From contig NZ_AP023086.1 of the NCBI RefSeq assembly GCF_021655555.1, forward strand, positions 1,579,182 through 1,611,181: 32,000 nucleotides of DNA, written 5' to 3'. The notes beneath the pieces are model-generated. The model ran no database searches. It had not been told where the DNA came from and saw nothing but the letters and a program-made list of their open reading frames with translations. The position numbers and the translations under genes were made by a program. The DNA comes from Marinagarivorans cellulosilyticus. GTDB lineage: Bacteria > Pseudomonadota > Gammaproteobacteria > Pseudomonadales > Cellvibrionaceae. Shown here piece by piece: positions 8,645-29,000 of this stretch; the first letter of the stretch is position 1, and each line of letters opens with the position of its first letter.

Positions 8645-8993
8645 ATTTAAGCGTGTCTATTTAACTAAGTCAATTTAGGTGGGAGAGTTGTGGTCCAGTC
8701 AATCAGCTCCTGTGTTATTGTGGTTTAAGCTATAGATAGCATGATAAATAGAATTTTGATCTACATTAAGCTAGGGCATATTGAGGTGTTTAGGCGATAT
8801 GCGCACCATTGTTTAGTTGTGTGGGGTTTTTTCTATAGGTGAGCCTGTTTACTTATTTTACGGGGCAGAATGTGAGTTAGGCGTGCTACCTGTAGCGATG
8901 TGTCGTCCTACTTCGTGAATCCATTCGTTCGTCGGCGCGGCGCTTAACCTCCGTGGACGGAGGAAATGAAAGAAGTTTCCAGAAGCAACTTAT

Positions 8994-9043
8994 TTCCTCG
9001 CTCTCACAAAAAAATTACTATTTTTAGGGTGGCCCTTTAGATA
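8994..9043. repeat. Solo copy of the right end of the MITE-like element found at 21361-21563
   Basis: ttcctcgctctcacaaaaaaattactatttttagggtggccctttagata compared with 21515-21563 ttccttgctctcacaaaaaaattactatttttagaggtgcccttaggta. The first 34 nt match at 33 of 34 positions. Confidence 0.8.
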
Positions 9044-18900: not shown

Positions 18901-21359
18901 TCCTAAATCACATTGATCAATTTGACGCAGATTTTTTTGGAATATCCGAGAGCGATGCGCAATTGATGGACCCACAGCAAAGAATGTTTTTGCAGCTTGT
19001 TTGGCACACGATTGAAGACGCGGGCTACAGTGTCGAGTCCTTCGCTGGCAGTAAAACAGGGTTATATGCCGGCCTTTCTAACCGAGATTATTCAGAATAT
19101 CTTGCCAAGCAAGGTGTTGGGCTGAGTCCACAAATGAGCTTTGGAAACAATAATGCTTTCCTGGTGAATCGAATTTCCTATTTACTGGATTTTAATGGCC
19201 CCAGTGAAGCAGTTGATACACTTTGTTCAAGTTCACTGGTGGCTCTACAAAGAGCAGTTCTGGATATTCAAAACGGAATTTGTGATCAGGCCGTTGTTGG
19301 CGGAATTAGCTTGTTAGTGAGCCCAAGATTAAGCTCCGTATTTGAGCAAGCGAGTATGCTAAGTGAGGATGGGCGCTGTAAACCTTTTGATGAGCATGCC
19401 AATGGCTTTGTCAGGGGTGAAGGAGGCGGTGCCATATTTGTTAAGCCCTTGGATAAGGCGGTTAGCGATGGCGACAATATACTCGCCGTTATCAAGGGTA
19501 GCTTTGTGAATCATGGCGGTAGAGCAAACTCGTTGACGGCACCTAATCTAAAAATTCAAAAACAGCTTTTCCAAGATGCCTATAAACGCGCGAAAATTAA
19601 TCCAGCAACTGTATCCTTAATTGAAACGCATGGAACAGGAACAAAATTAGGTGACCCCATTGAAATAAAAGCAATGAAAAAAGCTTTTGAGGAGTGGGGC
19701 GTTACTGAAGGCGGCACAGAAAAGGCTTGTGCTCTCGGCGCACTTAAATCGAATATAGGCCATCTAGAGTCGGCATCGGGTATAGCAAGCTTGATCAAAG
19801 TTTTACTGTGTATGCGCCACAAAACACTACCAAAACAGATTCACCTTCAAAAAGAAAACCCCTACTTGGAATTGAGTAAAACGCCTTTTTACCTAGTGAC
19901 GGAGAATCAGCCTTGGGTAGCCAAAACAGGTGGAGATGGAACCGTACAGCCGAGGAGAGCAGGCGTTACATCTTTTGGTGCAGGTGGGGTTAATGCTCAT
20001 ATCATCCTCGAAGAATATCTGGAGGAGTATATAGCCCCTCAACATGTTGATAACAATCCCATAAATTTGACAGAAGACACGATTGTTCTGCTTACCTTAA
20101 GCGCAAAGACTGACAAAAGCTTACGTCATTATGCGGCGGATCTATTAGCTTACATAAACAATCATACGGTTGATTTGACTGAATTGGCGTACACCTTACA
20201 GCAAGGTAGGTCAAACCACGCAGTCAAACTATCCATTGAAGTTGCTAATATTATTGAGCTTAAAGCCGCCTTGGAACCCTTTATTTCAGGTGAGCACTCA
20301 AGTCGGATCAGTTATTCGAAAAATGGCGAAATCGTATATCTCGCTCAGTCGAGCAGTGACAAACTAACACTGATTAACAAAAAATGGCTGAGTGGTGAAG
20401 TTGTAGACTGGAGCACGCTATATATCGATCAGCGTGTCAAGCGCATTTCATTACCAGGTTATCCATTCTCGAATAAATCCTACTGGGTAGAAAAGAAATC
20501 GTTTAAGCCGACTGCCAATGTTAATTTTGATAAACAAAACTATACAGAAAATTTTATAAATAAAGACTTCAACCAAGGTGAGGCCTATTTGGCTGGGCAC
20601 AAAGTATTTGGCGACGAAGTGTTACTGGGCGTGACCTACCCGTCTATGGCTATTGAGTTTTCACGTAATAACTCCAACGGGGCCAATATTAACAGCGTAA
20701 AAAATGTCGTTTTTAACGAGCCTTTGGTACTCGAAAAAAATAACTCTGCTCGAGTTGTTGTGAGCTATACCGGTAAGGATAAAGGCATAGATTTTAAAAC
20801 CTACTTTCAGGTTAAGGGAAGCCACGAGACAAAATTATCATCGGTTGGGCGTTTAACAAGCGGGCAGCTAAGTAATGACGTGTTACCCATCAGTGCATTG
20901 ATGAACAAGATCGCCTCGGTACATCAGCAAAACGAAGTCTACAAACTCCTACGAGATCAGGGCGTTGACTATTCGGGTAGCTTGTTAACGCTTCATCGCG
21001 TACTGCTTGGCGAGAATGTCGCTATCGGGGAAATTGAGCTAAGGGATGATTTAATCAATAGCACCTCTGACTACCAATTACACCCAGTCTGGTTGGACAG
21101 TGCCATTGTGTGTGGCAAGTTTGCATTCCTAAAAGATCAGGATGCTTTATACATCCCATTTAGCATCGACCAAATAACCTTTAAAACTAAGCCGAGCAGA
21201 AAATCCTACTGCGTGGTTAAGAAGACTTTACTCAACGAGCAGATTTTGAAGTTCGATGTGTCCATTTGTGATCGTTGGGGAACGGTTTCGGTTGAAGCAA
21301 AAGGAATGTCCTGTAAGAGAGTTTTAAGCCAAGGCCAATGGAGTAAGAAAAACGCGTGA
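9969..21359 (+). CDS. Hybrid NRPS / trans-AT PKS megasynthase: F, C(C-terminal lobe only), A, PCP, KS, DH, KR, ACP, ACP, KS, DH-like
   Basis: The track ORF is 9957-21359 with a TTG start. The first ATG is 9969 and GTG 9963 is also possible. Domains were read from motifs; nt positions are approximate. F domain 9984-10800 (INYHDGPLPKYGG, VDEGRII). C-terminal half of a condensation domain 10930-11580, with no HHxxxDG. A domain 11648-13100 (YTSGSTGKPKG 12084-12116, NMYGPTETT, YRTGD, GRMDNQIKLNGYRIELGEIE, LNGKVDRK). PCP 13270-13500 (GFNSLG, Ser codon 13380-13382). KS1 13695-14990 (DTACSSS with Cys 14196-14198, EAHGSGT, SNVGH). Flank of about 180 aa without an AT. DH1 15540-16400. KR 16480-17830 (TGGTGAIG, IDD, YGYAN). 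ACP 17955-18185 (Ser 18063-18065). ACP 18310-18545 (Ser 18417-18419). KS2 18720-20020 (DTLCSSS with Cys 19224-19226, ETHGTGT, SNIGH). Flank. DH-like 20560-21330. Stop 21357-21359. Confidence 0.93.
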   Translation: MDHQKFSCLIIGGTSLLIECANKWIVNGHVIKLVVTDDNDVERWAKGHDIEVIRKGSSDYLDRVMGMNFDYLFSIVNLDILPKAIINAPAILAINYHDGPLPKYGGIHATSWAIANQEPSHGISWHEMLIGVDEGRIINQQVFDIEEGESAFTLNLKCFEYAIEGFDQLVSSIEAGSLELISQDLSERSYVGKYKRPKQLAVIDWNRPSKEIVSFVKALDFEHVENPLGIAKVHINNRFFQVKEAQSTGTRSSGRPGVVESIGPNYVEVSTTTESVKLRDFKTLCGQELDFNSITNELKEGADLNFYCFDNEQTIYEESAKREVFWVRKYQEAVKVTKKKSGLPKEPSYRASIPLTDYEMDALQNNSIAAVISLLGAFIAWSRRGQGFCVGLRCSESPVEGYFFDTHPLVMEDASGMSFEDIASKIELQLREITKNEHCPIDIFSRYSSLNSQSVKGNCYEYDFIVDVNESIDYDNDYVLDDQVRLNLSLENNEWNVIAGPKFDKDLLERFTKYYSLFSSSITTKPSAKREALSGLSLISGAQIAEIDGLNDTRVAMPNKSVCEIILDKASETPNAIAVISSSTEYSYQQLQDRVSEISGCLISLGIKSGDRIGILLNRSFDMVAAFIATMKVSAVYVPLDPIYPPDRLQHMIEDSGLKVLISVENILSKLENYNGSSLLLDKDMFGGTDDLAQFPGIEDSAYIIYTSGSTGKPKGVEINHKSLTNFILSMAEEPGLSKDDHLLSVTTVCFDIAALEIYLPLTQGATLELCTEMEAKDGFALLEKLEQGRITALQATPTTWEMLIAAGWEGKEKIKAMCGGEPLRRELALKLIPRCFELWNMYGPTETTIWSSIKLIKDADEITVGRPIANTTMYVLDESLKPVWPGEKGELFIGGAGVAVGYWNREELTKERFVSQSIFNRSPERLYRTGDAAKLSTHNEVVCLGRMDNQIKLNGYRIELGEIESTIESISGIEKCVVILFESMGESKLHAFLLMDDEGKQPKVSELSASIATKLPEYMVPSEYQFVSEFSLTLNGKVDRKELLKRLDDRPPKTTAKDNLDLPQSNSIAYKQLEQNLEDNKGSTGSEAELKQAACARSVTGALYDLLANDLENIVKELIHLDDIDRDLPFGQYGFNSLGFTRFSAEIRNRYNVRVSPATFYSHSNLNKLVDFLIDGKYSAEISEYYREVLVENYRDVEEPLYSGDQDSDAQKGSSQNSGVSAMPLEDTKDGKHINGSFNSREPIAVIGMSVKMPQADNLDEYWENLISRKDCVTHIPESRWDWKNTDFEQRSENPYKWGGFIPHAASFDASFFKISPREAELMDPQQRLFLQASYHAIEDAGYCPDELNGSDTGVYVGVVTSDYWDLIQREDISPDGYTISGNINCVIANRISYHFNFTGPSSVIDTACSSSLVALHRAVQAMRSGECSQAVVGGVNIIASPYIHHSFSKNGMLSKDGRCMSFDHRANGYVRSEGIAAVILKPLSAAERDGDKIYGTILGTAENHGGKANSLSAPSGEAQSQLIQKAIKNANVDPNTISYIEAHGSGTPLGDPIEIAGIQNAYESLGVDSDHQDEICGIGSVKSNVGHLEAVAGLAGLVKVLLSLKNEVIPGMPNYEAKNPHIDLNENLFQFVSRPREWKRKSGVGNGAGRRAGVSSFGFGGVNAHVIVEEYQARDESQSGNRANALLISAPNKDKLERLVQQYLVHTLSDGGNTWEEICYTSQVGRQHFDERLIVCAASKQQAKNALEKHVDRWGSANEVLSGNVREQKEILDKLFSNIGNTSIVKTLIEQKQFNSIAQFWLAGSEVNWRALYEAAKIKRASLPLHPFAQTTFWLPNKSTHLFEAELQNAIRENSHLDHPFYDSLAASCGNLIFSLDPKDPIVGDHIVDSKVIFPAVGYLEFARLAGDQFNRENLNLPVVKLKNNVWFHALDVGFHESNKKLSIRLENRKSKVVYTIESMSELSSGQVHARGEIEYGEKPSGLVVTIDINDIRKRCNLKLERKAVYDLFSQLKFEYKTGYMPLEEVYLNDKEALSRITLPEKFENKESIVLHPSLLEGGIQTVIGILSHPSHDSSSAYLPFSMSSITINEKLSSECYIHAKLVSDELSERRGVRTFDIDIYDISGTLLVKIEGYSLKTLNALADNGNQTSPSASNVFHCFKKTWAQEPLSPIEGFHFETILLFSNEQESVDLIQAHIGTDIRVIQVMEGDRFTELSPSKFVSKGDKESLSILLEQIGEPLDAIIYGWGHERGATDESNVNEHIEQTIIPLFNLCSILSNPIYKGINLRLLCLAHIDHGEINPVQMGMGGLLRSLYQETRALKGSLVCLEALSENNVKPLIAEIAADQCYSEIKIQDGSRQVLNYKAKSVPVFIEENKFPVKPHAIYLVTGGTGAIGRKIIEHLHSIAGAKFIVIGRRPLSSDVKLAWNNKGVNYQYHSADLNRFDQIQSIIQGLGVDASKIKGVIHCAGSIDDGLLSKKSSDQIYSVIQAKAVGLYTLDILTKNIQLDFFCCFSSISSVMGNMGQTDYGYANAVIDQFVENRSQQFEKGERSGVSLSINWPLWLDGGMQADEVATNYFKKSTGIHPITTETGMSMLAYAVNKESGQVILSAGDDKKILGAMSLRSSIQNKSKHKPKSEVLLKSVKAPLSCASAMDQSKANLSQTVVEELITISEGILKVDSGSITQDTRLADAGFDSISNTELTTAINDLYSVDVTPIIFFEYETLGEVTEFLLKEYRDSIVEHCGEQPSAVDNIILEATDSEQIGASAHSLRENGEALKDLVIDELKSLSAAILKIGKEQISADEKMADLGFDSISNTELSTAINDVFDVDMTPVVFFECDTLAEVSEHLIDEYSESLERYADEKGLSQQVEHSEKVSTPIIASEKESLSSSEAPSPEASRQDGNVASKNITTSDIAIVGMQAALPGSNGLDDFWEKLLSGTDFVGEIPENRWSWQEVYGEAGPEGKTRSKWGAFLNHIDQFDADFFGISESDAQLMDPQQRMFLQLVWHTIEDAGYSVESFAGSKTGLYAGLSNRDYSEYLAKQGVGLSPQMSFGNNNAFLVNRISYLLDFNGPSEAVDTLCSSSLVALQRAVLDIQNGICDQAVVGGISLLVSPRLSSVFEQASMLSEDGRCKPFDEHANGFVRGEGGGAIFVKPLDKAVSDGDNILAVIKGSFVNHGGRANSLTAPNLKIQKQLFQDAYKRAKINPATVSLIETHGTGTKLGDPIEIKAMKKAFEEWGVTEGGTEKACALGALKSNIGHLESASGIASLIKVLLCMRHKTLPKQIHLQKENPYLELSKTPFYLVTENQPWVAKTGGDGTVQPRRAGVTSFGAGGVNAHIILEEYLEEYIAPQHVDNNPINLTEDTIVLLTLSAKTDKSLRHYAADLLAYINNHTVDLTELAYTLQQGRSNHAVKLSIEVANIIELKAALEPFISGEHSSRISYSKNGEIVYLAQSSSDKLTLINKKWLSGEVVDWSTLYIDQRVKRISLPGYPFSNKSYWVEKKSFKPTANVNFDKQNYTENFINKDFNQGEAYLAGHKVFGDEVLLGVTYPSMAIEFSRNNSNGANINSVKNVVFNEPLVLEKNNSARVVVSYTGKDKGIDFKTYFQVKGSHETKLSSVGRLTSGQLSNDVLPISALMNKIASVHQQNEVYKLLRDQGVDYSGSLLTLHRVLLGENVAIGEIELRDDLINSTSDYQLHPVWLDSAIVCGKFAFLKDQDALYIPFSIDQITFKTKPSRKSYCVVKKTLLNEQILKFDVSICDRWGTVSVEAKGMSCKRVLSQGQWSKKNA

Positions 21360-21360
21360 T

Positions 21361-21563
21361 TACCTTAGGGGCATCTCTAAAAATGCACTTTTTCCGCGAT
21401 AGCGGCTTACAGTTTTTTGCTCCTGCAAAACCTGTATTCAGTCCATCCATGGACATTAGCTCCGTCCTCGAGTCCTCATTTACACCACGTAAACTGCGGC
21501 TCTCCGGGCGGTGCTTCCTTGCTCTCACAAAAAAATTACTATTTTTAGAGGTGCCCTTAGGTA
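21361..21563. mobile_element. MITE-like non-autonomous element (about 203 bp, imperfect terminal inverted repeats)
   Basis: The left end is taccttaggggcatctctaaaaat (21361-21384). The right end atttttagaggtgcccttaggta (21541-21563) has reverse complement tacctaagggcacctctaaaaat, which matches the left end at about 20 of 24 positions with one indel. No credible coding capacity. It is bounded by TA on both sides. Its right end recurs at 8994-9043. Confidence 0.65.
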
Positions 21564-21601
21564 TGACCAAATCAATAGCCAGAAATCAGGGGGATTAATA
21601 G

Positions 21602-24600
21602 GTGTCAAAGTACTTTAAAGCAATAGACCGGTATGCCGTAGGGCATGCCAACATGATGATTAAATACCGATTTATAGTGGTAGCAATTTGTATTGCTGTG
21701 GCAATGGGAATTGCCTATGGCGGTAAGTTTTTGAATTTCTCCTCCGATTACCGAGTGTTCTTCTCGGGAAGCAATCCGGAGCTTAATACTTTCGAAAGCT
21801 TCCAAAAAACCTACACAAAGAACGATAACTTTTTCTTTGTCCTAGAGCCAAAAGACGGAAACGTATTTACCAATCAAACCCTGCGTGCAGTCGAAAAACT
21901 AACAGAACAATCTTGGCACATTCCGTTTGTTAATCGTGTTGATTCGCTTAGTAATTTCCAAAATTCTTACAACGTCGGTGACGATCTTGTTGTAGAAGAT
22001 TTGATATATCAAGCGGAGGGCCTTTCCGGGAGCGCGATTAGAAAAATTCGTGAAACAGCACTCAACGAACCGTTACTGGCAGATTTGCTAATCACTAAAA
22101 GTGGTGATGCAACGGGCATCAATGTTGTCTTGCAGTATCCAGGGAACAGCCTGTACGAGGTACCTACAGCGGCAGCAAAGGCACGAGAGCTTAAGGCTGC
22201 CATAGAAACAGAATTCCCAGATATTGATGTGTCACTAACTGGGTTTTCAATGTTGAATAATGCGTTTGCTGAAGCGGGCTACTTGGATTCTATTAAGCTA
22301 GTACCGGTGATGTATGCGGTACTTACATTTATTACTTTGGTTGCACTTAGGTCATTTTTAGCGACTTTTGTCGTGGTGGGCATTGTGTATTTATCCATGG
22401 GCGTTGGAATGGGAGCGGGTGGCTTTGGTGGAGTACTCCTTACGCCAATTTCTAACTCTGCACCAATCGTAATTTTAACGCTGGCTATCGCAGATTGCGT
22501 CCATATATTTATGACAATCAATATGGCAATGAAGAGAGGGCTATCAAGAAACGAAGCAATTGTAGAGTCAATTAGATCAAACCTAATGCCTGTTACTATT
22601 ACTTCGCTAACAACCATTGTTGGTTTTATGGCGTTAAACTTTTCAGATGCACCACCTTATTGGCATTTGGGCAATATGGCCTCTGCCGGTATAGCCGCTG
22701 CATGGATACTGTCGTTGACTTTATTGCCTGCGGCTATCTCCATATTACCTTATCGTGTGAAGAAAAAATCTAAGGCAGCGTTATCTGAGGTATATATTAC
22801 AAAATTCTCGAAATTTGTATCGTCTAACCCTAAGACCCTTGTATCAACTTGCGTGTTAGCTTGTTTAGCGTCATTGGCATTTGTTCCATCCATTGACCTA
22901 GATGACCAATGGTCCGACTATTTTTCGAAGGAAATTGAGTTTAGAAATGATACCGATCAAGCAACGACCAAATTTGGCTTATACCCCATCGAATACTCAG
23001 TACCTGCTAGCGGGCCTGGTGGTATTAGTAATCGAGAGTATTTAACGAAGCTAGAAGAGTTCACCTCGTATTTGCGTGGCCTCGATAATGTGGCTCACGT
23101 CTACTCTGTCACCGATATCATTAAGCGTCTCAATAAAAACATTAATAATGATAAGGACGAGTTTTACAAAATTCCCCAGGTCGATAATGAAGCCGCTCAA
23201 TACCTTCTTCTTTATGAGCTATCTCTTCCGTACGGCTTAGATTTAAATGATCGTATAAATATTGATAAATCCGCGACTCGCGTGACGGTAACTTTAGGTA
23301 AAACATCAACCTCTGAGACAAAGGTCTTCCTGAATACGGCGGACGAATGGATTGCTAAAAATTTCCCTGCATATATGAAAGAAACAAGGCCGACGAGTGC
23401 TCAGGTTATGTTTACTTACATTGCTGACCGAAATGTCCAGAGCATGATAGCGGGAACAATCATTGCCATCGTACTAATCTCGATTATTCTTATTTTTGCT
23501 TTAAGAAGTGTGCGCTTGGGTTTACTCAGTCTCGTACCCAATGCATTACCTATTATCACTGCCTTTGGGGTATGGGGCGTTCTTGTTGGTACGGTGGGCT
23601 TTTCAGTAGCCGCTGTGGCAGCAATTTCATTAGGTATTGTGGTGGATGATACTGTTCACTTCCTAACGAAATACGAAACCGCGCGAAGAGAAAAGGGATT
23701 ATCACCGGCAGAGTCCGTCGAATATTCATTTCAAAATGTAGGTTTGGCCATAGTTATCAATACTTTCATATTAGTTATTGGGTTCTTGGTAATGGCCAGC
23801 TCCTCCTTCAAGATCAATTCCGATCTAGGATATTTGACAGTAATTACTATCGTCGCGGCTCTAATTCTTGATTTTCTATTATTACCCTCACTTTTATTAT
23901 TGCTCGATAAAAAGAAGGAGCCAGCAATGGACGAAAAGACTGTTTCAGGTACCGTTTCTCCGGGAATTTCTATTTCTACTACTGTCGGCGCCACGTTGCT
24001 CTTTATTGCCGTCATAGGCGCCTCGGTAAGTGTGCCCGTAATCGCGCAAGCGAATGAAGACAAGGGCTATCGAATTTCTGCTATGTCGGATCGAAGTGAT
24101 AGGGGTTTTATTAGTAGCGATGTCTCTTTGCAGATGGTTCTTCACAATAGTACTGGCAACAAGGCAACGAGAGACCTACAAATAAAAACTTTGGAAGTAA
24201 TAGACGAAAACCTAGGTGATAAAAGTATCGTTATCTTTAGCGAGCCAAATGATATTGCCGGCACCGCTTTGTTATCTCACGCGAAAATACTCGATGCGGA
24301 CGATCAGTGGTTATACCTGCCGACCCTTAAGCGTGTTAAGAGAATTTCGTCAAAGAACAAATCTGGGCCTTTTGTGGGTTCAGAGTTTGCCTTTGAGGAT
24401 TTCACAGCGTTAGAACTCAATAAATATTCTCACGAATGGGTGGAGGAGCAAGCCTGCGCAGAGCTCAAGTGTGATGTCATCAAGCGCATTCCTCAATATG
24501 AATTTTCCGGCTACAAGCATCTTCTTGTGTGGATTGATCAGAATGATCATCAGGTGAGAAAAGTTGAGTTTTACGACCGAAAAGGAGACTTGCTTAAGAC

Positions 24601-24772
24601 TCTAAATCTAGAAGACTACCGCAAGTACGGGAGTTACTGGCGGGCACATGCGCTTCATATGATAAATCATCAAACGAATAAGAAAACCGATCTCATTTAT
24701 GGTGACTATGCATTTAGCACAGATTTGAGTGCTCGAGATTTCGAGAAGGGTAGGTTGAAGCAGATCCGGTAG
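21602..24772 (+). CDS. RND-superfamily (MMPL / COG1033-type) exporter permease fused in frame to a LolA-like outer-membrane lipoprotein-sorting domain
   Basis: GTG start 21602 with AGGGGGA 7 nt upstream. The N-terminus IDRYAVGHANMMIKYRFIVVAICIAVAMG and the following DYRVFFSGSNPEL are typical of this exporter family. There are two pseudo-repeated TM bundles (...PIVILTLAIADCVHIF... and ...ISLGIVVDDTVHFL...), each following a large periplasmic loop. From about aa 776: MDEKTVSGTVSPGISISTTVGATLLFIAVIGASVSVPVIAQA, then a soluble domain of about 240 aa (DDQWLYLPTLKRVKRISSKNKSGPFVGSEFAFEDF...) matching the LolA-like sorting-protein family as I recall it. Confidence 0.85.
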   Translation: MSKYFKAIDRYAVGHANMMIKYRFIVVAICIAVAMGIAYGGKFLNFSSDYRVFFSGSNPELNTFESFQKTYTKNDNFFFVLEPKDGNVFTNQTLRAVEKLTEQSWHIPFVNRVDSLSNFQNSYNVGDDLVVEDLIYQAEGLSGSAIRKIRETALNEPLLADLLITKSGDATGINVVLQYPGNSLYEVPTAAAKARELKAAIETEFPDIDVSLTGFSMLNNAFAEAGYLDSIKLVPVMYAVLTFITLVALRSFLATFVVVGIVYLSMGVGMGAGGFGGVLLTPISNSAPIVILTLAIADCVHIFMTINMAMKRGLSRNEAIVESIRSNLMPVTITSLTTIVGFMALNFSDAPPYWHLGNMASAGIAAAWILSLTLLPAAISILPYRVKKKSKAALSEVYITKFSKFVSSNPKTLVSTCVLACLASLAFVPSIDLDDQWSDYFSKEIEFRNDTDQATTKFGLYPIEYSVPASGPGGISNREYLTKLEEFTSYLRGLDNVAHVYSVTDIIKRLNKNINNDKDEFYKIPQVDNEAAQYLLLYELSLPYGLDLNDRINIDKSATRVTVTLGKTSTSETKVFLNTADEWIAKNFPAYMKETRPTSAQVMFTYIADRNVQSMIAGTIIAIVLISIILIFALRSVRLGLLSLVPNALPIITAFGVWGVLVGTVGFSVAAVAAISLGIVVDDTVHFLTKYETARREKGLSPAESVEYSFQNVGLAIVINTFILVIGFLVMASSSFKINSDLGYLTVITIVAALILDFLLLPSLLLLLDKKKEPAMDEKTVSGTVSPGISISTTVGATLLFIAVIGASVSVPVIAQANEDKGYRISAMSDRSDRGFISSDVSLQMVLHNSTGNKATRDLQIKTLEVIDENLGDKSIVIFSEPNDIAGTALLSHAKILDADDQWLYLPTLKRVKRISSKNKSGPFVGSEFAFEDFTALELNKYSHEWVEEQACAELKCDVIKRIPQYEFSGYKHLLVWIDQNDHQVRKVEFYDRKGDLLKTLNLEDYRKYGSYWRAHALHMINHQTNKKTDLIYGDYAFSTDLSARDFEKGRLKQIR

Positions 24773-24777
24773 TTTTA

Positions 24778-25962
24778 ATGCAAATGTATCAGAGAAATTT
24801 GGCGAGATTAACACTGTGCGTAGCTTCTCTTTTTACTGTTGAGGTTTACGCTGATGATCTAAGTCTCGGTGGAAGTGTGGGGTTCGAGCATCGACACTTT
24901 TTCGAATCTCCACAATACGAGGAGCAATCTAAAAGTGTAAGTACTGAGGTTGTATTTGAACCGGAACTGGCTTTTAGCTTAGGCAGGAACAACCAGTTTT
25001 CTTTCAAAGGGTTTGTTCGCGAAAACAGTGAGGACGAACAAAGAAATCACAGTGATATTCGTGAGCTTTATTGGAATTATCAGGGTGATTTATTCGATCT
25101 GACTGTTGGGGTGAACAAGATCCATTGGGGTGTTGTTGAGTCGCTAAATGTTGTGAATATTATTAATCAGATTGACTATGTGGAAGACATCTCCTTGGAT
25201 GAAAGGTTGGGCCAGCCAATGCTTGGAATAAGCGCCACAAATGACTGGGGCACTATCTCGGCATATTGGTTAACTCACTTTAGGGAGAGAACATTTCCTG
25301 GCGAGAAAGGGCATTTCAGACTTTCTCTACCAGTAGATGTGAATAATGCAGAATATTCTGGCGTTGAAAAGAATGACCATAAAGACCATGCGCTTCGGTA
25401 TTCTCATTATTTTGGAGATCTTGATGTGGGACTCCACTGGTTTAATGGAATCGACAGAAGCCCAGAATTCCGGGTAGATGCGGATCGATTAATTCCTGTC
25501 TACAGTCATTTAGAGCAGTTTGGTTATGATTTTCAATACACCTTTGATGCTTGGTTACTAAAAGCTGAGGGCGTTTATAAGACAAAGAGTCAAGAGAGTT
25601 CCTATTCGTTAGTGACTGGCCTGGAATATACCATTTTTCAGTTTTTTGGGGGCACGGGTGATCTCGGTTTTTTATTTGAGTACCTCTACGACAGCCGAGA
25701 AGCCGTTGATCCTCTTTTCGAGAACGATGCGTTTATCGGCCTTCGATACGTTATGAATAATGTTCAGGATACAACCTATTTAATTGGTGCGATAAGGGAC
25801 TCCAAAACCAGTGAAACTGTCGTTAACCTAGAATTCACCACAAGAGTTGGCTCCCAATTTTTACTGGAAGTTAATGGTATTTATTTTGATAACGCGGAAT
25901 ATTCGTTTCAAAGTTTTGCGAAAGATAGCAGTGTGTCTTTAAACCTAAGTTGGCACTTTTGA
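24778..25962 (+). CDS. Outer-membrane beta-barrel (porin-like) protein
   Basis: The signal peptide is MQMYQRNLARLTLCVASLFTVEVYA|DD. Amphipathic strands alternate, aromatic residues are abundant, and the C-terminus is ...SLNLSWHF, ending in Phe. The start is 6 nt after the stop of the exporter gene. The family is not assigned. Confidence 0.7.
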   Translation: MQMYQRNLARLTLCVASLFTVEVYADDLSLGGSVGFEHRHFFESPQYEEQSKSVSTEVVFEPELAFSLGRNNQFSFKGFVRENSEDEQRNHSDIRELYWNYQGDLFDLTVGVNKIHWGVVESLNVVNIINQIDYVEDISLDERLGQPMLGISATNDWGTISAYWLTHFRERTFPGEKGHFRLSLPVDVNNAEYSGVEKNDHKDHALRYSHYFGDLDVGLHWFNGIDRSPEFRVDADRLIPVYSHLEQFGYDFQYTFDAWLLKAEGVYKTKSQESSYSLVTGLEYTIFQFFGGTGDLGFLFEYLYDSREAVDPLFENDAFIGLRYVMNNVQDTTYLIGAIRDSKTSETVVNLEFTTRVGSQFLLEVNGIYFDNAEYSFQSFAKDSSVSLNLSWHF

Positions 25963-26039
25963 ATGATCATCTTTGATTAAGCAGGGTACAACCTAGTAAT
26001 AGCAATTAATTTAGTCTTTAACTAATGCAGGATTATGTT

Positions 26040-29000
26040 ATGGAGAGGATGATAGAGTCTAGAAAAATGGCTGGTAAAAATACGAGCCAATCAATGGTTG
26101 ATTATCTGATTAGGCGGATTGAAGTGATTACGAAATCGTCTATCACTAAATCTGATTTAAAAAAGAACATAATGGATTTAGGTGTTGACTCTATTGGCCT
26201 AGTGAATATTGTGGATGATATTAAAAAGGAATTCGATATTGACCTGCAACCCACAATATTCTTCGAGTATCAGAGTATTTCTGAATTATCAACATACTTG
26301 ATAGACGAAGTTGGAAGTGCTGATGCACCGGCAGCCGCTGCCAACGTTAAAGAGACATATTCGTATATCGAACAACCCGATAAAAAATTTGAATCTCAAG
26401 AATTGCAGAGTAGGAGAGGTCACGCTGCGTCGTTTGTTCGGGATGCCAGCGAAGGTGATTTGGAGGATCTGTTCAATGCTTTTCAGGGTGCTGAGGGCGG
26501 TTCTAATTACCAGGATGCGAGCAAAAGCTACGCAAAACCTAAAGTAAAAGCCGAATTGGAAGATATCGCGGTTATCGGAATGGCTGGTAAGTTTTCCGGC
26601 TCAGATAATGTGAATGAGTTCTGGGAAAATATATCTAGCCAGAAAGACTTATTTAGTAAGGTTCCTAGCGACAGATTTGATTACGCGCAGTGGGCATCAG
26701 AGAATTATGATCTGGCAGATAAAATATACTGCGATCGCGGGAGCTTCATTTCTGATGTAGATAAGTTTGACGCTTCTTTTTTTAATATTCCCCCAAAAGA
26801 AGCCGCGATCTTAGATCCTCAGCTCAGACTATTACTGCAAGTTATTTATGAATCGATAGAAGATGCTGGCTATGCAAATAAGATAAGGGGAACAAACACC
26901 GGTATGTATGTTGGTGCTTGTTTTCACGATTACGAACTAGAACTGGTAAGGAACATGGGCGAGATGAGCCCCTATTTTGGGACTGGTAATGCCCTCACAA
27001 TGTTGGCGAATCGACCATCCTTTTATTTGGATTTAAAAGGGCCGAGTTTACCTTTGGACACTGCTTGCTCAGCCTCGTTAGTTGCCGTTAACGCAGCGCT
27101 GCAAGCTTTAAGAAATGACGAATGTGAAATGGCTTTTGTTGCCGGTACTAATTTACTTCTGAGTCCGCTTCATTATCGATACTTTTGTGCCATTGGCGCA
27201 CTATCTAAATCTGGAAATAGCTTCCCTTTTGACTCTCGAGCCGACGGTTATTTGCCTGGGGAGGCCGTGGGGGCTGTTTTACTCAAGCCACTTGAAAAGG
27301 CAAAGCGTGATGGGGATGAGATCCACGCAGTCATTAAGAGCGCCGCTGTAAATCACGGTGGTTATAGTGCTTCGTTCACTGCGCCCAATGTTTCGCAAGA
27401 AGCCGCAGTGATTAAAAAAGCGCTGTACGCTGGTGGTATCCCCGCAGAAAGTATTTCCTATATTGAAGCGCATGGAACGGGCACCTCGCTCGGCGATCCA
27501 ATAGAAGTTCAGGGTTTAAAGCAAGCTTTTAAAGGCGTAAATACTGATATTGCGCAATGTGCCCTCGGGACCACCAAGGCTCATATTGGGCACGCTGAAG
27601 GTGCTGCAGGTATAGCTGGGCTAATTAAAGTGATATTAGCCATGAAAAATAAAACAATCCCTGCAATGCCTCACCTCGAAGAGATTAACCCCTATATCAA
27701 TATGGAAGGGTCCCCTCTGTACATCAATAGACAAAATAAAAAATGGGAAGCCAATAGCGGATTTCCTAGAAGAGCAGGAATTAGCTCCTTCGGTATCGGT
27801 GGTGCCTATGCGCATATTGTTGTAGAAGAGTACGAGCAAGAGGAAATTGCAAACACTGCGCCTGACGAAAAGGATTCGGTGTTTGTGCTTTCAGCACGAA
27901 GTGAAGAGGTTTTACGCTCCTATTCAAATAATATTGCTGACTATGTTGAGGAGCAGTATTTAGGGGGGGGCATTAGTGGCTTGTACTCACCGAGTAAACT
28001 TTCCGAGTTTATTTTATCTGAAACTGGCAAAGATATCCCGGAAACCAGCTACGACGAGCACCTATTGGATCTGGGCTTTGATATATATGATTATGTAAAA
28101 ATCGCCGATCGCCTTTCTCGTGAGATGAACTCCAATGTGAGCGCTCGAATTATTTCACTACACCCAACGCTCTTCAAATTGGCTAACTTTCTTTCTGGTT
28201 CAGAAAATGTTGAAACGCCAAGGGTACGAGTGAGTGATCTTGCTTACACCATGCAGGTGGGCAGAGAGGCTATGCCATATCGTTTGGCTATTGTTACACG
28301 CGACCACGAAACACTCATCGAAGAATTAAGAAGTTTCTCCAAAAATACTCAAAGTGGACAAGCCTGTTTTTATAATTTGGGCCAGAAATCCGATCAATGG
28401 AGTGAGCTACTAGAGACCCAAGAGGGTGAAGGGTTTCTAAAAACGCTACTGGAATCTGGTAATCAAACGCATCTAGCAAAGCTTTGGGTTAATGGCGTTG
28501 ACGTACCCTGGGGAAGCACCACTGCTGAAAAAAGACGACTGGTAAAGCTACCCTCTTACCCTTTCCAAAAAGTTCGCTTTTGGTATTCCGAAGAAGTAGC
28601 GGTACAGCCCAAAAATAAAGAAAAAATCATAAATATTGTTGATCAGGTACGCAAGAAAGAAACGACAGCGGATATCCTTAAAGATATATGGATGACGTAC
28701 TTGTCTGTGGAATCGATTAATGAGAATGATAATTTCATGGCGTTGGGTGGGACTTCAATTAATTCGACCCAAGTTGTGGTAGAAATCAACAGACGCTTCG
28801 ATACAAATATCACTGTCGGTGAATTTGGCCAATGCAAGGATTTGGGCGAGTTATCATCCATTGTTGAATCGCGCAAAAAGCCTGAGCGTGCTGATAGCTC
28901 TAGCGTCAGTACCCTAGTTCGGAGTATTACTTCCTCTAATAAAAAGCAAGGTAAGCTGAGTTCCGATCAGATGAGGCTTTGGGTTTTGTCCCAAATGTAT

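Follow-up and report, generated by a model that had tools for sequence, protein, structure and literature searches.

The 32-kb stretch of DNA analysed here (the window) contains a biosynthetic locus in which a large hybrid PKS gene is followed on the same strand by an exporter gene (Table 1). A Pfam scan recognized formyltransferase-like, AMP-binding, ACP, KS, DH and KR domains in the PKS. The GTG start of the exporter is backed by a start alignment with Cellvibrio sp. ARAG 10.3 and by 1056-aa homologues, and a GGGGGA Shine–Dalgarno sequence lies 7 nt upstream of it; an alternative 1039-aa form, starting at ATG 21653, is on record for the 5.31-Mb genome from which the window comes. Used as a query against a collection of genome contigs, the exporter protein returned no related loci. 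Between the PKS stop codon and the exporter start lies an inverted-repeat element, as a preliminary description of the locus had stated; an inverted-repeat search of the window returned its arms at 21366–21384 and 21541–21559 (19 nt, 89% complementary).

Table 1 Coordinates of the features discussed (window positions unless another locus is named)
Feature	Position	Strand	Basis
Hybrid PKS gene, 11.4 kb, 3800 aa	9957–21359	+	Pfam scan, ORF list; TGA at 21357–21359
Exporter gene, 1056-aa MMPL/RND-type transporter with C-terminal LolA-like domain fused	21602–24772	+	Pfam scan
MITE copy, 188 bp (140-bp core plus internal module A)	21369–21556	+	Register with 88 two-ended copies
Left 4-bp target-site duplication copy, TTAG	21365–21368	.	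Single TTAG in L043 empty site
Right 4-bp target-site duplication copy, TTAG	21557–21560	.	Single TTAG in L043 empty site
Left terminal inverted repeat (TIR), GGGCATCTCTAAAAAT	21369–21384	+	Conserved left end of aligned copies
Right TIR, reverse complement GGGCACCTCTAAAAAT	21541–21556	-	15/16 match to left TIR
Optional module A, two small hairpins	21406–21456 (approx.)	+	Size-class consensus alignment
Decayed 5′-truncated family copy, LysR–PKS intergenic region	8899–9034	+	blastn with class consensi
Decayed right-arm fragment of MITE family, 77% identity	2228–2295	-	blastn with class consensi
Module A-like hairpins	L038:1501–1551 (G010); L040:1501–1548 (G008); L042:1501–1538 (G015)		
IS4-like insertions in MITE copies (MAG WLWT01, ‘MH-Pat-all_autometa_1-5’)	L053:1347–2777; L085:6102–7921; L150:6455–7886		
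Active-looking IS examples	G000:C1 259442–260797, 82139–83475, 171261–172569, 52340–53706		

The boundaries of the element were set by aligning 88 two-ended copies in register. Homology runs from GGGC (21369) to GCCC (21556), with similarity between copies beginning at GGGCATCTCTAAAAAT and stopping at ATTTTTAGAGGTGCCC, and the four bases outside the ends are identical within one copy and different between copies. By this alignment the element measures 188 bp, not the ~203 bp first estimated, and the copy under study is 98.4% identical to the consensus of its 188-bp class. Its true TIR is 16 nt long (GGGCAYCTCTAAAAAT), with 15/16 positions matching in this copy. The ~23-bp terminal repeats with ‘TA ends’ read earlier, and taken as compatible with a TA duplication of IS630/Tc1 type, arise because the TTAG duplication and the near-palindromic host target around it (TACCTTAGGTA in the empty site) lengthen the apparent stem; the duplication here is of 4 bp, TTAG. 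It begins 5 nt past the PKS stop codon and the MITE itself 9 nt past it (2 nt had been given), and the MITE ends 45 nt 5′ of the exporter GTG and ~32 nt, rather than 24 nt, 5′ of its Shine–Dalgarno sequence. The two ORFs drawn across the MITE had been suspected of being spurious. We regard them as such because they gave no match in a Pfam scan and the underlying DNA is missing from a sister strain; given the insertion, they should not be counted as genes.

A search of the window’s own 5.31-Mb genome gave 80 scored matches to the MITE, and local blastn against the same genome gave 217 HSPs in ~120 places, with 88 clusters having both ends. An independent search for the 16-nt end found 94 pairs in inverted orientation with less than 700 bp between them. 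An exact 4-bp target duplication flanked 65/94 of these TIR pairs, and three of the four positions were alike in 10 more, compared with a match in 1/94 when the next four bases outward (a shift of 4 nt) were used as a control. The duplicated targets were AT-rich, with the consensus T-(T/A)-A-A; TTAA (17) and TAAA (10) were the commonest, and CCCA, TCTT, AAGT and GAAA also occurred. Sequences so varied indicate a true duplication, and neither a fixed motif nor the TA of IS630/Tc1 elements.

Almost all copies were intergenic (89/94, with ORFs covering 86.6% of the genome in a home-made, crude map of 3955 ORFs drawn up without a gene caller), a bias that reflects purifying selection or targeting. 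The intergenic copies lay between co-directional (48), convergent (22) and divergent (19) ORFs, approximately as predicted from intergenic length. Many sat 0–1 nt past the upstream stop codon, as would be expected of a target containing TAA. Relative to flanking transcription, orientation was unbiased (22 same, 26 opposite). Eleven copies, the PKS–exporter copy among them, lay between co-directional ORFs that were no more than 60 nt away on either side, six in one orientation and five in the other. Two decayed relatives lie elsewhere in the window (Table 1). The copy at 8899–9034 corresponds to the right 137 bp of a 352-bp-type copy at 81% identity, and the LysR–PKS control region that holds it is 1.4 kb long; with three family members in 32 kb, the biosynthetic locus has been hit at least three times.

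Comparison with strains carrying an empty site had been proposed as a check, and one such site was found. The 33-kb metagenome contig L043 (ENA ERZ922545, run SRR2594391) encodes a 99% identical relative of the exporter and is 98–99% identical to the window over 9 kb. There, 50 bp separate the end of the called PKS gene from the exporter start, and this spacer contains one TTAG and no MITE; the alignment at the site equals the window minus 188 bp and one TTAG, and is otherwise unchanged. L045 (run SRR2594392), a further contig of that project, starts inside the MITE at the same site and is identical to the window across the remaining 177 bp of the MITE, the TTAG and the spacer. In the orthologous cluster of Cellvibrio sp. 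ARAG 10.3, the called gap is 42 bp and lacks the MITE; the exporter of this strain is 69% identical and is the closest named homologue. The flanks of the MITE site had no DNA-level match in 40 sampled relatives, so the cluster is rare in the group.

Over the 6.2 kb shared by the three close strains, private differences number 30 in the window, 33 in L043 (empty) and 75 in L045 (filled). In the first kilobase past the site, the window and L043 are almost identical, with one and two private changes, and L045 has 11. The differences along window positions 21561–27772 fall in blocks, those of L045 3.5–5.5 kb downstream and those of the window 1.5–3 kb downstream. Because the private differences are clustered, they point to homologous recombination within the biosynthetic cluster among these near-identical strains. 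Judged from the aligned contigs, the MITE site is polymorphic among very close strains, and gain, precise loss or allele exchange would all be compatible with it.

Family members fall into size classes of 140 bp (36 copies), 188 bp (12, including the copy at 21369–21556), 254 bp (8), ~235 bp (6) and ~351 bp (4), with single copies of up to 566 bp. Aligning the class consensi resolved them into one 140-bp core with optional hairpin blocks at fixed points: module A (~50 nt, two hairpins), which is present in the 188-bp class and missing from the 140-bp core class, and modules B (66 nt), C (~47 nt) and D (~53 nt). The longest copies (372–566 bp) carry extra hairpin modules and have no coding capacity. 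We rejected the idea that the modules are independent small repeats; in the source genome they occur almost exclusively inside MITE family members. A module A-like 45-nt double hairpin without MITE ends was seen in three other genera (Table 1), with the loop TTTTGC-TCCT-GCAAAA followed by a CCATGG-centred hairpin, and module A may be shared with other repeat families.

Beyond the source genome, a second species of the genus carries the MITE family, in the form of a 188-bp-class copy flanked by a TAAA duplication, as do further genera of the same taxonomic family. The 140-bp core was detected in 14/200 sampled genomes of the order, in a patchy distribution across at least eight GTDB families, and some of these 14 carriers hold dozens of candidate copies. 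An exact 21-mer scan of species representatives found very many sites in the MAG ‘Gammaproteobacteria bacterium MH-Pat-all_autometa_1-5’ and also matched Zooshikella, Porticoccus, Ca. Endobugula and a Marinagarivorans MAG; chance should account for a few of the other matches, given a 21-mer and the size of the collection, and those in Nostoc, Baaleninema and some others may be of this sort. Natural-product-rich symbionts are among the carriers (a Mycale hentscheli sponge symbiont MAG, Ca. Endobugula and Zooshikella). Core copies at 83–89% identity were also seen at L091:3848–3986 (Urechidicola MAG) and L123:1687–1826 (Maribacter MAG; reaching the contig end), and others at Polaribacter and Acidimicrobiia MAG loci. 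The copies in Flavobacteriia-labelled MAGs, on short contigs, are most simply explained as mis-binned gammaproteobacterial contigs, with transfer as the alternative. The literature searched contained no description of the family, the MITE had no match in plasmid or phage record collections, and the region matched no Rfam family at E values up to 10.

The proposal that the ends pair into a long RNA hairpin was borne out by folding. The region 21355–21570 folds at −80.4 kcal/mol, compared with −47 kcal/mol for dinucleotide shuffles (n = 200; z = −8.8; 0/200 as good), and the MITE alone folds at −70 kcal/mol. Covariation was assessed in 34 core (140-bp) copies from at least 15 genomes, which share ancestry. 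The 16-nt TIR is nearly invariant across these copies, and they share a rod-shaped consensus fold in which 37 pairs make up six helices, with standard pairs in 97.3% of cells and both sides changed in 15/37 pairs (91 cells). Across the copies, column pair 51:94, for example, comprises 16 A-U, 14 G-C and 2 C-G pairs; column pair 56:88 comprises 23 A-U and 11 G-C; and column pair 68:76 comprises 19 U-A, 11 C-G and 2 G-C. None of 500 shuffles matched the observed pairing, covariation score or double-change counts, and sliding the partners by 1–3 columns left 41–60% pairing and 3–13 doubly changed cells. Since pairing and double changes exceed both the shuffled and the slid controls, the rod is evidently kept beyond the TIRs; on the alignment, this is a real property that lacks an explanation, and no proof of RNA function. 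To have covariation documented along the whole rod is unusual for a bacterial MITE. The core copies also have conserved G-U positions, and one strand folds 6–8 kcal/mol better in 36/37 copies, an asymmetry probably inherited from the common ancestor.

Genome-wide blastn had been suggested as a route to both further copies and a parent IS; it gave the copies (~120 places). No autonomous element with MITE ends was found in the source genome or in the loci fetched from carriers. We rejected each of the six multi-copy IS types of the source genome as the parent, their ends being unrelated and their duplication lengths mostly different, and the Pfam DDE_Tnp_1 matches in the source genome belong to IS with other TIRs. 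At the thresholds used, DDE_Tnp_1_2 (IS427-type, PF13586) was absent from the source genome and five carrier genomes, and DDE_Tnp_1_4 (IS1380-type, PF13701) was absent from the source genome; an ISAzo13-type transposase (PF07592) was not found either, a weak result, as the model matched no control genome. A 1367-bp IS701-like IS (seven copies) makes 4-bp AT-rich duplications (TATA, AAAT, CTTT), but its ends (ACAACACT...) are unrelated to the GGGCAYCTCT... of the MITE. A single-copy IS701-like element has 12/18 terminal bases in common with the MITE and no duplication. In G195, a relative rich in MITE copies, homologues of its transposase come with different ends and a 7-bp duplication, and no homologue was found in three further MITE-rich genomes. 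An IS701-like parent is thus not supported, as the TIRs differ and the homologues are missing from several MITE-rich relatives.

Further parent candidates were screened as MITE ends lying 0.8–3.5 kb apart. The candidate in L150 (1.4 kb, with a TCTT duplication) proved to be an IS4-like IS nested in a MITE loop, as did the candidates with MITE ends in L053 and L085. At L056 4132–5516, MITE-like ends surround a 365-aa ORF, judged by eye to be dioxygenase-like and not a transposase; the flanks differ, and we read the arrangement as two remnants around an ordinary gene. A solo TIR at 301896, beside an IS3-like copy, adjoins no transposase remnant. At least three separate MITE copies (Table 1) contain the IS4-like IS (ends CACTGCTGTCCC, 383-aa transposase ORF) within their apical loop. 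A 9-bp flank, ATAGGTGAT, is duplicated on either side of the IS in L150 and L053, and in L085 a MITE left arm adjoins it on each side, a layout that suggests an inversion involving two IS4-like copies. By analogy with IS that target REP sequences, these insertions suggest that the IS4-like IS targets the MITE hairpin loop. The source genome of the window carries several active-looking IS families: besides the 1367-bp IS701-like IS, there are 23 near-identical copies of a 1356-bp IS with an 8-bp duplication, a 1337-bp element that lacks clear TIRs (~12 copies) and eight copies of a 1309-bp IS3-like element. It also encodes Y1_Tnp proteins, in four IS200-like copies and elsewhere.

We consider it very likely that 21369–21556 is a miniature inverted-repeat transposable element (MITE), a DNA transposon that has no coding sequence and is non-autonomous, of an undescribed family with many copies in the source genome, that its insertion is recent or segregating and that it is most probably a near-neutral passenger. 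The MITE-like identity proposed at the outset is upheld by the many copies, the TIRs, the target duplications, the empty site in a sister strain and the lack of coding capacity. On its sequence features, the family is new within a well-known kind, with the structural characters of that kind other than an autonomous partner. The MITE would have inserted at a TTAG five nucleotides past the PKS stop codon, inside a former spacer of ~42–50 nt between the PKS and exporter genes, by a staggered 4-bp cut whose filling-in would have produced the TTAG duplication; the TIRs and the 4-bp duplication signature point to a DDE-type transposase supplied in trans. As some of these very close strains carry the MITE and another does not, the insertion is probably recent or still segregating. 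Lying inside the PKS–exporter spacer, the MITE is most likely transcribed within the polycistronic mRNA, where it could fold as a long rod. Its local effect is most likely little or none, as would befit a tolerated passenger that neither starts nor ends transcription; it may, at most, be a site of RNA processing or stabilization. A crude pattern scan found no sigma-70-like promoter or intrinsic-terminator pattern in 21250–21700, a scan that non-sigma-70 promoters and weak attenuators could escape.

Several other explanations deserve weighing against this one. The idea that the sequence belongs natively to the biosynthetic operon, as a conserved regulatory spacer and not an insertion, has nothing beyond its position between two operon genes to recommend it, and is practically inconceivable: the site is empty in a 98–99% identical strain, the orthologous cluster of Cellvibrio sp. 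lacks the sequence, and related sequences occupy ~120 places elsewhere in the genome. It is also highly improbable that a REP/BIME palindrome was spread by a RAYT, or an IS200/IS605-type element moved by a Y1 HUH transposase. Although the sequence is highly palindromic and Y1_Tnp proteins are encoded in the genome, such systems insert beside a fixed short motif and give neither TIR-defined ends nor target duplications, whereas here 65/94 pairs have exact and varied 4-bp duplications and the empty site has a single TTAG. A material effect of the MITE on expression of the PKS–exporter operon is a more substantial proposal, and one that we think rather unlikely. Cutting by a double-strand-specific RNase or a block to 3′–5′ decay could uncouple PKS and exporter mRNA levels; partial transcription termination or an outward promoter are other routes proposed. 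In Neisseria, Correia elements act on the processing and stability of mRNA, and so do ERIC/REP-type repeats; by analogy, the highly stable hairpin formed by the transcribed strand (−80.4 kcal/mol, z = −8.8), placed 9 nt past one stop codon and 45 nt before the next start codon, might do likewise. However, the region 21250–21700 has no promoter-like or terminator-like motif, the family is unbiased in orientation (22 versus 26), and 11 tight co-directional gaps tolerate it in both orientations. The lack of orientation bias, the tolerance of tight gaps and the lack of motifs weigh, for the family at large, against regulation tied to one direction and against strong polar effects.

The conserved rod raises a different question, whether the family is more than an IS deletion derivative. 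If its spread or persistence needed a folded single-stranded form, either ssDNA during mobilization or a functional RNA, both the compensatory upkeep of the rod and the failure to find a matching transposase gene would be explained. The 97.3% pairing, with 15/37 pairs doubly changed and 0/500 shuffles equalling it, the conserved G-U positions, the 6–8 kcal/mol strand asymmetry, the optional modules that are themselves self-contained hairpins and the absence of a parent from the genomes and loci searched are all in keeping with such a requirement. We nevertheless find it improbable. TIRs with variable 4-bp duplications are the classical DDE signature, intramolecular mismatch repair within an extruded palindrome could, with no selection at work, produce what looks like compensatory change, and the common descent of the copies makes the strand asymmetry an inherited trait and not independent evidence; moreover, there is no Rfam match, no orientation bias and no promoter pattern. 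It is likewise quite unlikely, if slightly less so, that the whole rod, and not just the 16-nt ends, is required for spread or retention, through a structure-dependent ssDNA/RNA step or an RNA role selected by the host. This idea is based on compensatory upkeep across at least eight GTDB families of marine gammaproteobacteria, on exchangeable hairpin modules and on the failure to find a cognate transposase gene in several of the carrier genomes.

The locus offers two natural alleles, with and without a hairpin of −70 to −80 kcal/mol, in which uncoupling of the megasynthase and the exporter could be tested. The family is a handy strain-level marker and breaks short-read assemblies, the edge of contig L045 falling inside a copy. 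The covariation could be used to ask what such elements need beyond their TIRs.

Known bacterial MITEs include Correia/NEMIS in Neisseria, RUP in Streptococcus, Nezha in cyanobacteria and Chunjie in Geobacter. Like them, the present family is small (140–570 bp) and non-coding, with TIRs, a target duplication, many mostly intergenic copies, polymorphism between strains and a hairpin-forming transcript, a likeness in general characters. Unlike them, it spans at least eight GTDB families of one order instead of one genus, has a modular build and documented rod-wide covariation, and has no known parent IS. Its 4-bp duplication, T-(T/A)-A-A, differs from the TA of Correia and IS630-derived MITEs; on the features tested (Rfam and, for Correia, the duplication), the family would belong to neither Correia nor ERIC. 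With MITEs derived from IS630/Tc1-mariner elements it has TIR-bounded ends and AT-rich targets in common, but not the defining TA: its duplications are of 4 bp, and many of them, such as CCCA, TCTT, AAGT and GAAA, contain none. The IS701 family and the IS5 group are DDE elements that make 4-bp duplications, the length found here, whereas the MITE ends are unrelated or only weakly similar to those of the IS701-like IS in the source genome. There is also a likeness in architecture to BOX of Streptococcus pneumoniae and ERIC/IRU of enterobacteria, which are modular or long imperfect palindromes, intergenic and co-transcribed, and have been proposed to act as RNA hairpins. To our knowledge, BOX and ERIC lack clear transposon ends of the TIR-plus-duplication type; the MITE family, by contrast, has TIRs, target duplications and a demonstrated empty site.
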